Positions 3,767 to 11,576 of a DNA stretch of 11,576 nt are shown piece after piece; position 1 is the first letter of the stretch; every line of letters begins with the position of its first letter. Origin of the DNA: Oliverunavirus OLIVR1 (Duplodnaviria; Heunggongvirae; Uroviricota; Caudoviricetes; Schitoviridae). Both the position numbers and the translations under genes were made by a program. Below the pieces are notes generated by a model. That model was not told the DNA's origin. It ran no database searches and saw only the letters and a list, made by a program, of their open reading frames with translations. The DNA lies in the IMG/VR virus record IMGVR_UViG_2974724996_000001, positions 64,001 to 75,576 of that record, one strand, 5' to 3'.

Positions 3767-5190
3767 GCATCATACTGGAAGTACAGATCACCATCTGAAC
3801 CAAAAGAGTCACTAGGTACCCCAGTCCCATAAAAGAAGTTACTAGTAGCAGCATTACCAAGATCACCTGGTTGAACTGCGGTATCTGCTTTACTGCCTTG
3901 TATACTTGTCGCTTTAGTAGCAAGAGCATCTGCAATAGCGCCACTTTCTACCATTTGTGCTTCAGTTTTATTAGGTACGTTTTCCAATCCTACATGGGAT
4001 TTGTTTAATACAACTGTTCCAACCATACCATTAACGGAAAGAACTTGGTCCGAACTGTCAATCTTATCCCAAGTGGAACCATTGGAAACAATCCAGTCTC
4101 CGAGAGACCATTCAGAAAAGTCATCAATAATGGTGGTACCCGGGGTATTGATCACATAATACCACCCTTTGTTAGCAGGCGATGCTGCTGGAATTTCTGG
4201 ATCATTTGCAGAAGCATCCCATGTACCTTGGTAATTCATCGCTCCAATCAACGCCTCATTAATTTGAGACAAAGGGACCTTTGAATTTATATCCAGAGAT
4301 GCGTAACCGTTTGATGCACCTTTATTGATTGCCTTCTCACAAAGAGAAAATGCGTCCTCAAGTCCGGTTATTGTAGACATACTTTGAGAACCAGTATGGT
4401 TCGCTCGATCAAACACATCCTGCTTAATATTCTGAGGATCATATAATGCACTTAGCATGTCTCCGGTACCTGTACCGGAAGCCCCTCTTATATTAGTAGC
4501 TTCACCTATATTATGAGTGTAACCTGTTTCACTAATATACATTCCAACAGGGGGTTTGACACCAGACCCACCAAACCAATCCACTACTCTCTGAACTGCA
4601 CGGGGGCCGTCCATTACATTAGAGACTACAGCAGTCCATGCATCCAGACCTGTTGCACCAACAGGAATACCGAGAGTGATCTTCTTGGTTACTGGATCAT
4701 AGATAGCAGTTGCTTGTTCTCCTACATCAAGGGTTTGTGCTTCGGCTGTAATATCGGCAAGGAGACCATCGCGTATTTCAATGGTCTCATTTAAAGCAAT
4801 TTGAGCAGATTGAACTAGTTCCTCTGTCTGAGGAATGATTTGGAGAAGCTCATCCAGATTAGAATAAACAGCAACAAGTTCCGGAAGTGCAGATACAATT
4901 TGCTCTACACTATCCAGATTTTCTGCCACCAATTTTATATCAGTAATATTATCAATAATACCCTGTAGATTATCCAAATTTTGTTGGATATCTATAAGAG
5001 CATCTATCTGAGCCGATATCAGATTTAGCTGCTGAATATGCTGAGCAACGTATCTTACCACTTCATAAGAGGTACGGAGAATTCTATCTACGACTAACTC
5101 TGGTTGGACATTACCGGCGGGTATAGATGGGGCAGAAGGCTCTGCATACCCATCGTCTGTAAAATCTCCGCCAAAAGGATTACCCGACAT
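3763..5190 (-). CDS. Tail fibre / appendage stalk protein A2
   Basis: N-terminal QPELVVDRILRTSYEVVRYVA anchor-like motif, 10-residue repeats, fibre motifs (GYASLD..KVPLSQ, QGTWDA, GDWIVSNG, V.SVNG..G.VVL.K..VGL.NV) and terminal GTGVPSDSFGSDGDLYFQY. Collinear paralog of 6278..7666. Confidence 0.85.
   Translation of the reverse strand: MSGNPFGGDFTDDGYAEPSAPSIPAGNVQPELVVDRILRTSYEVVRYVAQHIQQLNLISAQIDALIDIQQNLDNLQGIIDNITDIKLVAENLDSVEQIVSALPELVAVYSNLDELLQIIPQTEELVQSAQIALNETIEIRDGLLADITAEAQTLDVGEQATAIYDPVTKKITLGIPVGATGLDAWTAVVSNVMDGPRAVQRVVDWFGGSGVKPPVGMYISETGYTHNIGEATNIRGASGTGTGDMLSALYDPQNIKQDVFDRANHTGSQSMSTITGLEDAFSLCEKAINKGASNGYASLDINSKVPLSQINEALIGAMNYQGTWDASANDPEIPAASPANKGWYYVINTPGTTIIDDFSEWSLGDWIVSNGSTWDKIDSSDQVLSVNGMVGTVVLNKSHVGLENVPNKTEAQMVESGAIADALATKATSIQGSKADTAVQPGDLGNAATSNFFYGTGVPSDSFGSDGDLYFQYDA
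4831..5040 (-). repeat. Seven 10-aa (30-bp) degenerate coiled-coil-like repeats in fibre A2
   Basis: aa 51-120: HIQQLNLISA/QIDALIDIQQ/NLDNLQGIID/NITDIKLVAE/NLDSVEQIVS/ALPELVAVYS/NLDELLQIIP. Confidence 0.7.
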
Positions 5191-8396: not shown

Positions 8397-9998
8397 TTAG
8401 ACAACATATGACTGTAAAGGACTGTTCTCTGGTTCTGGTACATCGTCCTCAAAGACGTTGTTCCCATCCTCATCTTTGATGTTGCCGCTGTCGTCAGACG
8501 GTTTCCAAGGTGTGAGGTACCCAAGCATTGAGACGGTATCTACGCAGTCGTCTTTACCTTTGATCCCGTTAATTGTTACCAGTTTTATTTGCCCAAGGAA
8601 ATGGCCCATGATCACACTGGTTCTTAATTCTTCAGGCCAGTAGAATTTTCCTGATTTGAACCAAGGAACAACAATATTAAAGCGTTCTAGTTTATTAGTA
8701 ACAGGACGGATACCTGGCTCATTAGACTTCGAATTCGAAGCAAAGGTGAACCACACATTTCGATTTTGCATCTCTTGCTGTAGCCATTTAATAAAGCCGC
8801 CTTGCTGACCTGAGATTTCAACACCAACAGACTGCGGACGATACATAGCTACTAGTCGAAATAGATCATTGATGTTCTTATCCATAGTCTGCTTTGCACA
8901 GATACCATCGACCCAGAACCAATCACCATTAGCATTATACGCCCATACACTAATCACCGAGAAGTCAGAACGTTCTTTGTCCGTGGTGGCAAAGTCCGTG
9001 GTGATATAAAAGTTATAGGCGCTCTTACGCTTTAGGAGATTGACGCGAGAGTACCACTGGATTTCTGCATCTTGTACCAGACGTTCATCATCAGAGGACA
9101 ATCGAAGCATAAGCTCCTGCATGAAGGATGCTACATGACCTGTTGTTACAGCCAGATCATATTCAGCCTTGATACGTGAGTAAGGAAAGCGGTCAGGCCA
9201 TGCCCCTACGAAGTCTTCTTCTGCACAGGGGAACTGTTCACAAACAGGATACACCGAAGCATCCCAACCACCGGACTCAACAGCAGTAACGAGGGGATCT
9301 TCTTTATTGAACGGCGTACCGTTGAAGATGACCTTTCGTTTTGTTGGATCGAGAGCGTGGCGAACACCCTTGTAAATCGTATCATTGATCGACTGAATTG
9401 CCGTAGGAGATCGAGCGTCATCATCCGACATCAAGTCATCGAGCACTACAAGCTTAGGGCGTTTGCCAAAAATCTTTGTACCACGAAGACCGGTCTTAGC
9501 ACCGAATAGTTTGGCAGCAAATCGCTGGCCATCCTTATTGGCTGACTCCCAATACTTTTCTGTGAAGTGCATCTCCGGAACCCATTCCTGAAGGAATTCC
9601 GAGTTGTCATAGCGAAACTCAGTATTCTTTCTGGCAGAGGCTACACCATTCTCCATGCTATCAGAGACATAGAGCATAGACTCAACTGGTCCGAAATTTG
9701 GTAACCAACCAAATGTAGCAAGGAACAGGTAGAAGTATTCCATGAACAGGGTGGTCTTGGCAGCACCACGAAAGATAAGGTTCGCTACATTCTCTGAACC
9801 AGAGCAGGCACGGTCAAGCATCTGTAGATGGACCGGAGGAGTTTTATTATCTTCCGGATTATTGCCATTAACTAGTTTAATAAAGTTCATGAAAAACAAG
9901 GAGAACTCGCCGGGAACGTAAGTTCCGTTAGCAAGGTCCGTGTAGTCCACGTTGTTCAACCAGTCATCAAGAGTCTTCTTGACAAGGATGGTGGTCAT
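8397..9998 (-). CDS. terL: Terminase large subunit (N4 gp68-like)
   Basis: Walker A-like IFRGAAKTT, Walker B VVLDD, coupling motif GTP, RNase H-like nuclease acidic residues (TTDFA, SDFSV, KDDCVDTVS). 533 aa with no obvious intein or intron. Confidence 0.95.
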   Translation of the reverse strand: MTTILVKKTLDDWLNNVDYTDLANGTYVPGEFSLFFMNFIKLVNGNNPEDNKTPPVHLQMLDRACSGSENVANLIFRGAAKTTLFMEYFYLFLATFGWLPNFGPVESMLYVSDSMENGVASARKNTEFRYDNSEFLQEWVPEMHFTEKYWESANKDGQRFAAKLFGAKTGLRGTKIFGKRPKLVVLDDLMSDDDARSPTAIQSINDTIYKGVRHALDPTKRKVIFNGTPFNKEDPLVTAVESGGWDASVYPVCEQFPCAEEDFVGAWPDRFPYSRIKAEYDLAVTTGHVASFMQELMLRLSSDDERLVQDAEIQWYSRVNLLKRKSAYNFYITTDFATTDKERSDFSVISVWAYNANGDWFWVDGICAKQTMDKNINDLFRLVAMYRPQSVGVEISGQQGGFIKWLQQEMQNRNVWFTFASNSKSNEPGIRPVTNKLERFNIVVPWFKSGKFYWPEELRTSVIMGHFLGQIKLVTINGIKGKDDCVDTVSMLGYLTPWKPSDDSGNIKDEDGNNVFEDDVPEPENSPLQSYVV

Positions 9999-10732
9999 TC
10001 TTCGATTTCCTCTGCATGAACCAATCTTGAAGCAGCTACGTCAATGGTCTTCATGGTTCCCATCTCAATTGCCGTTTTTTGGGTTTGAGCCAATTGGGTA
10101 ATAGCCTGAGTCAGTGCAGCCATGCCCTGCTGGTCCTGTTCACCTAGATTGATGTTAATACCCTTTGCAGCCTCTGGCTTCTTTAGATGGGTGAGCAAAC
10201 TATTCGCTGCTTCAGTTCGTACCTTCTCACTATCAGCACTGCGCATCAGTTCGAATTGGACGTTAAGCGCCTCTTGATACATATGCTGATTGAGTACCCA
10301 AGAAGGAACGAGCGACTGCTCAAGAATAAGATTGACCAGTTTCCCTTTCTTATAAATAGAGACGTAGCTCGATATCGTTTTTTCGGGTGTGCCGTTCGCC
10401 ACCAATGCCGTGTAGCGATCTGGGAACGTCTTGGCATATGAGTCCTTATCTGTATAGCCCATGAGCTTAAAGCTCACGAAGGCAACGGCTGCAAGGTAAT
10501 CGTCTGTCTTGAACTTGCCTTCTTTCAGCACAGCTGTATAGCTGACAAAGTTCCTTTGGATATGATCTCTGACAATAGGGTCAGTAGTTATACCATTAAG
10601 CTTATCTACATAATCCTGGGTAATAGATGCCCTAAGAGTAGTAGGTACAGCGCTCTTGACCTCTTCGAGTGTCAACAGATCTTCATCCGTAACCGGAATA
10701 GGAGATGAGAAGGGAGCAGAAGGAACACTCAT
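9995..10732 (-). CDS. N4 gp69-like conserved protein (possible terminase small subunit)
   Basis: 245 aa directly upstream of TerL with an ATGA overlap. Motifs SY..VLKEGKFK.DDY..AV.FVS.KLMG, FPDRY..LV and VRTEAANSLLTHLK.PE recalled from N4-like gp69. The TerS role is inferred from synteny. Confidence 0.75.
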   Translation of the reverse strand: MSVPSAPFSSPIPVTDEDLLTLEEVKSAVPTTLRASITQDYVDKLNGITTDPIVRDHIQRNFVSYTAVLKEGKFKTDDYLAAVAFVSFKLMGYTDKDSYAKTFPDRYTALVANGTPEKTISSYVSIYKKGKLVNLILEQSLVPSWVLNQHMYQEALNVQFELMRSADSEKVRTEAANSLLTHLKKPEAAKGININLGEQDQQGMAALTQAITQLAQTQKTAIEMGTMKTIDVAASRLVHAEEIEE

Positions 10733-10741
10733 AATTTAACT

Positions 10742-10772
10742 CTTGATCTAGAGTAGATATTCATCGTATTGA
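10742..10772 (+). promoter_or_regulatory. Candidate sigma70-type promoter driving an intergenic RNA
   Basis: CTTGATCT-N17-TATTGA; the same motif with identical spacing occurs at 11535-11565 (CTTGACCT-N17-TATTGA). Confidence 0.55.
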
Positions 10773-10778
10773 TTGTGT

Positions 10779-10879
10779 ACGGTTGTAGTCACAAGACTCC
10801 CGTACTGATCGAGTTTTGATGGGTTAGCTCAGGTCAGGTTAAAGCCCACGGTGCTCCTTACACCGTGGGCTTTTCTTTT
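10779..10879 (+). ncRNA. Predicted ~100-nt structured small RNA
   Basis: Bounded by the candidate promoter and a terminator whose long U-tract is on the plus strand. Three consecutive hairpins (about 10777-10805, 10805-10837, 10841-10873). No plus-strand ORF with an RBS. The 5' end is estimated. Confidence 0.55.
10841..10879 (+). terminator. Intrinsic terminator, strongest on the plus strand and probably bidirectional
   Basis: AAAGCCCACGGTG-CTCCTTA-CACCGTGGGCTTT, a perfect 13-bp inverted repeat whose right arm runs into TTTTCTTTT (10871-10879). The minus strand has only TTT after the GC stem. Confidence 0.85.
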
Positions 10880-11444
10880 AACAATTACTAACATAATTAT
10901 GTGAGTAATCAATCCGCTTCTTGAGGATGGTCAAGTAGCTCTCCATAGATACGATCTGCTGACGATGGAGTTGCTGGGCTTCCCAGTCCAAGGCACTAAA
11001 CGTAGGTGTGGTAGTAAACATCTTGGCTTTATCAAGCTTGTCCTCAAGCTCTGCGGCTTCCTTTTGCATTTGACCAACGAATGTATCAGCACTAGAACGG
11101 TATAGGTCCTCACGAAGACTATACCCCATGAAAGCCCAAACCTTTTTCTTGGCATCTTCGTAAGCCAAACGATTACCGATATCTGCATTGTAGTTGTTCG
11201 GGTCTGCACAGGCAGATTGTCCCGTAACAGTGAAGCCATTCTTCAGAACCAGAACGCAGAAGGTGAGGACGCCCAGTTCCGGAGTCAGAGGGATTTGGTT
11301 ATCCGGGTCTGCGATATTACCTTGTTCTAGTACACGTAAAACATTAAAGCAGTATTCAGCTTTAATATTATCCAGCAAAGCTACTTCAGTAACCCGAGGA
11401 GCTACGGCTTTGCTGATGAGTTCTTTTTCGGTGACAGGTTGCAT
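10878..11444 (-). CDS. Two-domain protein: N4 Gp49/Sf6 gp66 family domain + C-terminal helical (crAss001_48-like) domain; candidate anti-defence sponge
   Basis: aa 1-116: APRVT...LTFCVLVLKNGFTVTGQSACADP.NYNADIG..LAY..A..KVW..MGY. aa 120-180: MQ.E..EL..KL.K...F.....F..L....Q.L..QQ...M..Y...L..RI. AAAGG SD. Confidence 0.85.
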   Translation of the reverse strand: MQPVTEKELISKAVAPRVTEVALLDNIKAEYCFNVLRVLEQGNIADPDNQIPLTPELGVLTFCVLVLKNGFTVTGQSACADPNNYNADIGNRLAYEDAKKKVWAFMGYSLREDLYRSSADTFVGQMQKEAAELEDKLDKAKMFTTTPTFSALDWEAQQLHRQQIVSMESYLTILKKRIDYSHNYVSNC

Positions 11445-11482
11445 GATCTCAATGCCTTTCTTTGGCGGGGTTAGACAAATAA

Positions 11483-11513
11483 CTTATAGGTCTCATTTAG
11501 GTAATAATGCAAG
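11483..11513 (-). promoter_or_regulatory. Candidate sigma70-type promoter for the Gp49-family gene
   Basis: Minus strand CTTGCATT-N17-TATAAG (TTGCAT-N18-TATAAG), ending 38 nt upstream of the ATG at 11444. Same C-to-T spacing as the two plus-strand candidates. Confidence 0.6.
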
Positions 11514-11534
11514 AGCCTTTTTGATTTGACCCCC

Positions 11535-11565
11535 CTTGACCTGATCAAGGGAACGGGTCTATTGA
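11535..11565 (+). promoter_or_regulatory. Candidate sigma70-type promoter firing rightwards out of the window
   Basis: CTTGACCT-N17-TATTGA, back-to-back with the minus-strand candidate and overlaid by an inverted repeat. Confidence 0.5.
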
Positions 11566-11576
11566 ATACTTACACC

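Follow-up and report, generated by a model that had tools for sequence, protein, structure and literature searches.

A predicted plus-strand RNA family with a conserved hairpin loop beside the packaging genes of N4-like phages

Lambda OOP and P22 sar are cis-antisense phage RNAs, short and terminator-ended, that lie opposite the leader or 5' region of the operon they regulate. Regulatory RNAs of strictly lytic phages are, to our knowledge, barely charted. For the N4 family, the literature searched holds only unexplained small transcripts in the Pseudomonas phage LUZ7. These N4-like phage RNAs (sRNA1–3), seen by ONT-cappable-seq, are abundant, non-coding, shorter than 250 nt, late and intergenic (PMC9163698). 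In LUZ7 and LIT1, Watson-strand middle transcripts extend through late gene cassettes on the opposite strand (PMC9163698). The N4-type hairpin promoter (vRNAP, LUZ7 RNAPII) consists of a stem of 5–7 bp (or at least 6 bp) with a loop of 3–4 nt, upstream of the start (PMC4496689, PMC9163698). Small RNAs with anti-Shine-Dalgarno (anti-SD) loops are described from bacterial hosts. The loop motifs of the AbcR1 and cuckoo RNAs pair with ribosome-binding sites and occur in Rhizobiales, the host order of the phage considered here (PMC4615179, PMC4152367). Blocking of ribosome-binding sites by such loop-borne motifs is established for AbcR1 in Agrobacterium (PMC4152367) and proposed for the cuckoo family (PMC4615179). 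The cuckoo/ar14 RNAs are defined by two to four adjacent hairpins, each with CCUCCUCCC in a loop of 9–27 nt (PMC4615179).

The window, i.e. the whole stretch of DNA that was analysed, is the terminal 11,576 bp of a 75,576-bp phage genome whose gene layout is that of coliphage N4. The phage has already been studied as a biocontrol agent against rhizogenic Agrobacterium. The minus strand carries the 3,443-aa virion RNA polymerase and the late genes, and an N4 gp67-like structural protein, the large terminase (gp68-like) and a gp69-like protein are all encoded on this strand within the window. The gp69-like protein matches PHROG 2109 at 3e-91, and the gene for the terminase large subunit is immediately downstream. 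The N-terminus of the gp69-like protein, MSxxSAPFS, is common to Ochrobactrum phage ZX86 and an IMG/VR relative. The locus is a gap of 145 nt, flanked by the start codon of the gp69-like gene (10732) and the stop codon of a 188-aa gene (10878–10880), and it lies ~0.7 kb from the record end, beside the gp69-like and terminase genes. Both neighbours are minus-strand open reading frames (9995–10732 and 10878–11444), so the ORF list agrees with the earlier note, made from the sequence alone, in placing the gap between two minus-strand genes. The gap contains no open reading frame longer than 21 codons on either strand, no coding potential and no tRNA or tmRNA, and there is no second copy of the RNA element elsewhere in the genome. 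Its features are as follows.

10730–10732, minus strand: start codon of the gp69-like gene (9995–10732), the first of the gp69-like/large-terminase block in the ORF list.
10743–10772, plus strand: candidate sigma70-like promoter TTGATC-N18-TATTGA (boxes at 10743–10748 and 10767–10772), weak, with 7/12 consensus positions.
10753–10776, plus strand: leader that can pair with hairpin 2 over its 5' arm and loop (duplex −10.8 kcal/mol, z −2.8).
10777–10805, plus strand: hairpin 1 (RNAfold), GTACGG/CCGTAC enclosing AGTC-ACAA-GACT.
10806–10836, plus strand: hairpin 2, with two G·U pairs and the loop UUGAUGGGUU (10816–10825), which contains the near-invariant UGGGU(U).
10841–10873 (stem-loop) and 10871–10879 (U-tract), plus strand: hairpin 3, a predicted intrinsic terminator of 13 bp with the loop CUCCUUA (10854–10860).
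10878–10880, minus strand: stop codon of the 188-aa gene (PF13876 + PF21825), which overlaps the U-tract; the gene is convergent with the RNA.

A good rhizobial-type sigma70 promoter on the minus strand (CTTGCA-N18-CTATAA, 11484–11513) lies upstream of the 188-aa gene (10878–11444). This gene, with its PF13876 and PF21825 domains, may form a transcription unit of its own, and read-through of the hairpin at 10841–10873 could feed the packaging operon.

RNAfold of 10770–10880 (plus strand) gives three hairpins at −42.9 kcal/mol (z = −4.83), and none of 200 shuffles is as stable. The three hairpins that the earlier note had drawn are all recovered with the sequences it gave, as are the two G·U pairs it had assigned to hairpin 2 (T10809·G10833 and T10814·G10827). 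The stem of the third hairpin has 8 G-C pairs among its 13 bp and a loop of 7 nt, and is followed by the tail TCTTTTAACA / TCTTTT. A GC-rich stem-loop with a directly adjoining U-tract is thus present on the plus strand, as expected of an intrinsic terminator in the transcribed strand, while on the minus strand only UUUAA follows. In a scan for terminators, 10841–10873 (plus strand) ranks first in the window, which upholds the claim of a plus-facing terminator. The earlier note had also proposed folding both strands. The plus strand folds well, but the reverse strand is about equal (z = −5.0), and the fold of the window alone therefore cannot decide the strand.

Nucleotide searches gave no alignable copy of the gap, and relatives were therefore sought through the gp69-like protein. 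An element of the same build was recognised in 21 distinct sequences, which are mutually related, so that counts overstate the number of independent events. It is always located just upstream of, and antisense to, the gp69-like gene, and consists of a hairpin with a conserved loop followed by a GC-rich hairpin, mostly with a T-tract. The closest relatives are Ochrobactrum phage ZX86, one IMG/VR contig and a metagenome locus (L011), with gp69 identities of 67.6–74%. All three have a three-hairpin unit at the same place and in the same orientation as the window. The window, the IMG/VR contig and L011 have exactly the same hairpin 2 loop, although none of their three stems is the same and their terminator loops bear no relation to one another. 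More distant loci with a two-hairpin core are found in Sinorhizobium phage ort11, Rhizobium phages RHph_X3_15 and X2_28B, and 12 metagenome loci, as well as in IMG/VR contigs confirmed by covariance model. In this distant group the loop of the first hairpin reads GUUU(U)nUGGGUU(U).

A gp69 tree built by maximum likelihood has one clade (support 99/99) in which each of the 17 members carries the element, 12 being recognised by pattern and 5 by inspection, and 3 of these 5 (L018, L025, L026) have a variant loop. The element is also carried by ort11 and X3_15, which are placed beside the N4-coliphage clade on this tree. By pattern, the UGGGU(U) loop occurs on the plus strand of 15 of 86 upstream regions, and 4 looser matches occur on the opposite strand. 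Pattern scans of IMG/VR returned mostly chance matches, of which 8 were upheld by the covariance model (L179, L124, L121, L125, L131, L171, L151 and L176); three of these (L121, L125, L131) repeat L013, and L176 repeats L151. These scans added no member to the window's own clade. Covariance model R1, derived from the distant group, has no match to hairpin 2 of the window clade, even unfiltered. The case for homology between this four-member clade and the rest is therefore one of position, orientation, architecture and loop motif. The public database entries for ZX86, ort11 and the RHph phages leave the gap unannotated, and the element adds a missing annotation feature to these genomes.

Two further observations concern close relatives. 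Contigs from four 'fungus metagenome' runs contain a phage that is 97–98% identical over window positions 10300–11576, with ~20 substitutions in the 188-aa gene versus one in the RNA element. This sole substitution, 10786 T>C, falls on an unpaired base of the hairpin 1 region. In ZX86 there is a second hairpin (L002:7565–7615, plus strand; about 74,950–75,000 of the record) with a hairpin-2-like loop, GUUUUGUGUGUUUUA, on a 12-bp stem. A CU-rich run, CCUCUCCCCCUCUGC, lies behind this stem, and the hairpin scores 17.6 bits with model R1.

Covariation across relatives, a check suggested in the earlier note, is seen in the stem of hairpin 2. Among the equivalents of hairpin 2, 90% of cells are standard pairs versus 75.9% in shuffles, and none of 500 shuffles is as high. 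Eight of the 10 pairs are altered on both sides, as in 3 of 500 shuffles, and the covariation score is 0.52 versus 0.25. When the partner columns are slid, pairing falls to 42–56%. These figures come from 14 related sequences in a model-fitted alignment and lean towards structure. Compensatory stems can also be picked out by eye (GCGGUG/CGCCGC, GCAGCG/UGCUGC, UUGGUG/CACCAA, GGGGUG/CACCUC). Within the window clade, CUGAUC/GGUCAG of hairpin 2 is replaced by CCUGACC/GGUUAGG and other variants. Hairpin 1 has four different stems in this clade, those of the three nearest relatives being GGGTAG/CTACCC, GTGGG/CCCAC and AGTGA/TCACT. RNAalifold, run on a MAFFT alignment of the four close relatives, recovers hairpin 2 alone, because hairpin 1 and the terminator misalign. 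The most conserved feature of the element is the UGGGU(U) loop of hairpin 2, which the earlier note had not singled out. A conserved single-stranded seed within a conserved structure is thus present, in the form of this loop on its covarying stem and of a CUCC-enriched apex in the last hairpin.

Several features bear on which strand is functional. Within helices, the interior positions hold 22 G·U versus 1 A·C on the plus strand, and 2 versus 11 on the minus strand. Of 86 loci scanned uniformly upstream of gp69, 21 have a terminator that faces plus and 7 have one that faces minus. On the plus strand, 15 of the 21 family members have 5 or more T among the 8 bases 3' of the last hairpin. The lower folding energy of the plus strand was set aside as evidence; it is 6.1 kcal/mol better on average (13 of 14 sequences), but shuffles give −7.2, and the advantage is therefore explained by G+T-rich base composition. 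Taken from comparative sequence data, these features lead us to regard the plus strand as the functional one with moderate confidence, and the element is very probably a selected plus-strand RNA structure.

If the minus strand were functional instead, the element would be a leader or intercistronic element of a late mRNA running from the 188-aa gene through gp69 to the terminase. Its AAGGAG-type loops would then offer ribosomes a stand-by or decoy site, or the hairpin would cause attenuation. The minus strand does fold well (z −5.0), and the loop of the terminator hairpin reads UAAGGAG on this strand. A good host-type promoter on this strand, CTTGCA-N18-CTATAA, is upstream of the 188-aa gene, and none convincing is seen on the minus strand inside the gap. 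However, the 22 interior G·U of the plus strand would become A·C in such an mRNA, in which only 2 interior G·U would occur, and the T-tracts follow the last hairpin on the plus strand. In addition, no start codon lies at a usable distance from the AAGGAG loop save that of a 6-codon GTG frame. We therefore consider a functional minus strand improbable.

A DNA-level element is another explanation. It could be a site for packaging or end recognition beside the small-terminase-like gene, an origin of replication, or a promoter hairpin used by a phage RNA polymerase. The gap adjoins the gp69-like and terminase genes about 0.7 kb from the record end, and N4-type polymerases do use DNA hairpin promoters (PMC4496689, PMC9163698). 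Known hairpin promoters have loops of 3–4 nt, though, versus 10–13 nt in hairpin 2, and with an apical region of about 17 nt in hairpin 1 and a terminator loop of 7 nt none of the three hairpins has the N4-type form. The many helix-interior G·T positions and the T-tract fit RNA rather than duplex or cruciform DNA, and the loop motif is absent from the other promoters of the genome. A function at the DNA level appears highly improbable.

The 5' end of the predicted plus-strand RNA is less well marked than its 3' end. The earlier note had proposed a plus-strand promoter with a repeat near the end of the window. The repeat is real (TTGACC-N18-TATTGA, 11536–11565), but the candidate promoter TTGATC-N18-TATTGA matches only 7/12 consensus positions, falls below threshold in a promoter scan of the window and was not reported by it. 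The pattern TTGnnn-N17-19-TATTGA was rejected as a genome-wide signal, since 4 occurrences were found versus 2.6 expected from shuffles. At the very end of the record, a 7-bp hairpin (11533–11565, plus strand; CCCTTGA/TCAAGGG, loop CCTGA) overlaps TTGACC-N18-TATTGA. The record start carries tRNA genes, and 11533–11565 could be a left-end promoter, of host type or phage hairpin type, provided that the two ends adjoin.

Every clade has a TTG box within a few bases of the gp69 start codon. This conservation is confounded, however, because the box overlaps the complement of the gp69 ribosome-binding site (CTCTT at 10740–10744 in the window; CTCTT/CCCTT versus AAGAG/AAGGG in the family). In ort11 and X3_15 a good rhizobial-type promoter, TTGCTA-N16-TTATAG or CTATAA, lies directly before the element. 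The leader at 10753–10776 forms a two-part pairing with hairpin 2 that recurs in the IMG/VR contig, L011 and ZX86 (z −2.4 to −3.7 over the four sequences), and minimum free energy folds that include the leader prefer this pairing. Since the supposed −10 box lies in the leader that pairs with hairpin 2, it would be transcribed in at least some molecules. Given the conserved leader pairing, a separate small-RNA promoter may not exist. Within the gp69-like gene and antisense to it, a promoter-like sequence, CTGACA-N16-TACCAT (10569–10596, plus strand), matches 9/12 positions. Transcription from this site would yield an RNA of about 280 nt that is antisense to the start codon and ribosome-binding site of gp69 and stops at the same terminator.

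These features bring in a third explanation, in which the element is the 3'-end module of long plus-strand ('Watson') antisense transcripts. The terminator would keep these from running into the convergent 188-aa gene and on to the genome end, hairpins 1 and 2 would serve only in stabilisation or processing, and the small RNA would be a by-product with no trans function. The middle transcripts of LUZ7 and LIT1 run antisense through late genes in this manner (PMC9163698). In the window, the promoter of the element is weak and there is a promoter-like site inside gp69 at 10569–10596 (plus strand), and the pairing of the leader with hairpin 2 in 4 of 4 close relatives implies a transcription start further upstream. 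On the other hand, a near-invariant UGGGU(U) loop and a recurrent CUCC apex are needless for a plain terminator, ort11 and X3_15 have their good host-type promoter directly before the element, and the TTG box keeps its place in every clade. A role limited to the 3' end of long transcripts seems unlikely to us. The RNA may occur in two forms, one short and one forming the 3' end of long antisense transcripts, and may fold in two alternative ways.

The earlier note had read the terminator loop CUCCUUA as an anti-SD sequence. The exact loop is absent from ZX86, the IMG/VR contig and L011 and is therefore not conserved, but a looser CU-rich motif recurs. Of the 21 members, 11 have CUCC or CCUC in the apex of the last hairpin and 1 has GGAG or GAGG. 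Composition-preserving shuffles of the apex give a mean of 4.3 CUCC/CCUC carriers, and none of 2000 reaches 11. The stems of the last hairpin are unrelated between lineages, yet the CUCC-type apex recurs in them; 10 of the 21 members lack it, among them the window's three closest relatives. Some relatives have loops close to the cuckoo motif CCUCCUCCC, namely UUUCCUCCCAU, CUCCUCCC and UUCUCCUCCC. In ort11 and X3_15 the RNA would begin with CCUCCU if transcription started a few bases past the predicted −10 box. An anti-SD mechanism is plausible, with comparative support from these loops. The specific version in which the RNA acts in trans by this mechanism is put forward tentatively, as possible rather than probable.

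Scans of translation-initiation regions within the phage identified no conserved target, and three candidates were rejected. The loop of hairpin 2 has an 11-bp match in the leader of the virion RNA polymerase gene, 25–35 nt before the start (genome 51331), which is lost in the IMG/VR relative and ZX86. The terminator loop has a 10-nt match to UAAGGAGCAC in the initiation region of the open reading frame at 4848–5189, which is at chance level for strong ribosome-binding sites. A 13-mer shared with genome 39856–39868 was discarded as a pairing site, as it lies inside a plus-strand gene. In this part of the genome, outside the window (38,900–40,450), the longest minus-strand ORFs are spurious and the real genes are on the plus strand (e.g. 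39649–40083), a caution for users of naive ORF maps of the genome. The reading of the element as a trans repressor or cis-antisense regulator, also offered in the earlier note, is accordingly borne out as regards a structured, terminator-ended and conserved plus-strand unit with CUCC enrichment, but not as regards conserved targets within the phage.

The explanation towards which we lean, by a modest degree, is a plus-strand RNA of an undescribed family acting as a base-pairing riboregulator. The region ~10777–10879 (plus strand), with a start possibly tens of bases further upstream, would encode a non-coding RNA of roughly 100–130 nt that ends at its own intrinsic terminator. It would belong to a previously undescribed family in N4-like (Schitoviridae) phages of Rhizobiales and soil bacteria; no description of the element was found in the literature searched. 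As a base-pairing riboregulator, the RNA would mask Shine-Dalgarno sequences of host or phage mRNAs with its CUCC loop, as the host AbcR1 and cuckoo/ar14 RNAs do. Action in cis on the leader of the packaging operon would also be possible, because the RNA is fully complementary to any late transcript across the gap. Judged from the sequences compared here, the element is very probably a real, undescribed phage RNA family, and probably an anti-Shine-Dalgarno riboregulator.

A more elaborate proposal is that a lytic phage family has a copy-cat of the host anti-SD small RNAs. Its CUCC-tipped terminator hairpin would have targets in trans, either phage late genes or those host mRNAs whose ribosome-binding sites are strong, such as the ABC-transporter mRNAs under AbcR1 or NfeR1 control. 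The UGGGUU loop would recruit a second partner, and the leader pairing would switch between read-through and a short active form. This proposal is speculative and, in our estimate, unlikely to hold in full; were it true, the CUCC hairpin would reprogramme translation during infection. The family itself is clearly supported on evolutionary grounds and keeps a constant position next to the packaging genes, and its loop motif would copy the hosts' own device for silencing ribosome-binding sites.

Comparison with known systems begins with Rfam 15, in which no family reaches the gathering threshold. The best matches of the window are His_leader at 23.5 bits (threshold 49) and anti-hemB at 17.3 bits (49.5). 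None of 11 relatives searched at E up to 1 has a match at threshold, the best being anti-hemB at 27.8 bits in L011. These sub-threshold matches reflect only terminator shape, and the outcome of this search, which the earlier note had recommended, is in line with an undescribed RNA. AbcR (ar15), a family defined by homology to AbcR1/2 in sequence and structure and by two anti-SD modules, was likewise without an Rfam match, in the window at E up to 10 and in the 11 relatives at E up to 1, which places the element outside that family. It also falls outside cuckoo/ar14, with one motif loop in the window, the 7-nt CUCCUUA, and some relatives approaching the motif in one hairpin only.

Within the phage family, the gp70–gp71 gap of coliphage N4 (L001:7365–7574) contains an RNA of several hairpins, among them a long one that includes CAUCUCC, and a strong terminator, GGGAGCC/GGCUCCC. 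The gp69–gp70 gap of N4 (L001:6896–7055) has TTGCAG-N17-TAGACT before gp70, and GUCUCCUUAC. The gp70–gp71 gap RNA shares with the window element the phage family, the genome end, the strand, a place near gp69, a terminator end and CUCC, and it is a positional analogue of that element. Unlike the latter, it lies behind a protein gene, gp70, and has no hairpin with a UGGGUU loop, and covariance model R1 has no match in the N4 locus. LUZ7 sRNA1–3 are, like the window element, non-coding and intergenic in an N4-like phage, but they are located between orf69 and orf70, which is not the place of the N4 gp69 homologue (LUZ7 gp086). Beside gp086 there is only a 68-nt gap, followed by protein genes, and no likeness in sequence or structure was seen between the LUZ7 sRNAs and the window element. 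Compared with lambda OOP and P22 sar, the element differs in that overlap with an mRNA is only assumed, and its conserved loops point to extra contacts in trans.

With the host anti-SD small RNAs (AbcR1 of Agrobacterium, Sinorhizobium and Brucella; cuckoo = ar14, RSs0680/CcsR, NfeR1), the element shares adjacent hairpins with variable stems, C/U-rich 16S-like loop motifs and a Rho-independent terminator (PMC4615179, PMC4152367). It differs from them in being encoded by a phage, in having one motif hairpin, and in carrying the 7-nt CUCCUUA instead of CCUCCUCCC; its UGGGUU loop has no counterpart in the AbcR1 and cuckoo families. The element thus resembles the host anti-SD small RNAs and is a member of none of those families. 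We rate it as a putative phage-encoded, terminator-ended riboregulator with a C/U-rich loop.
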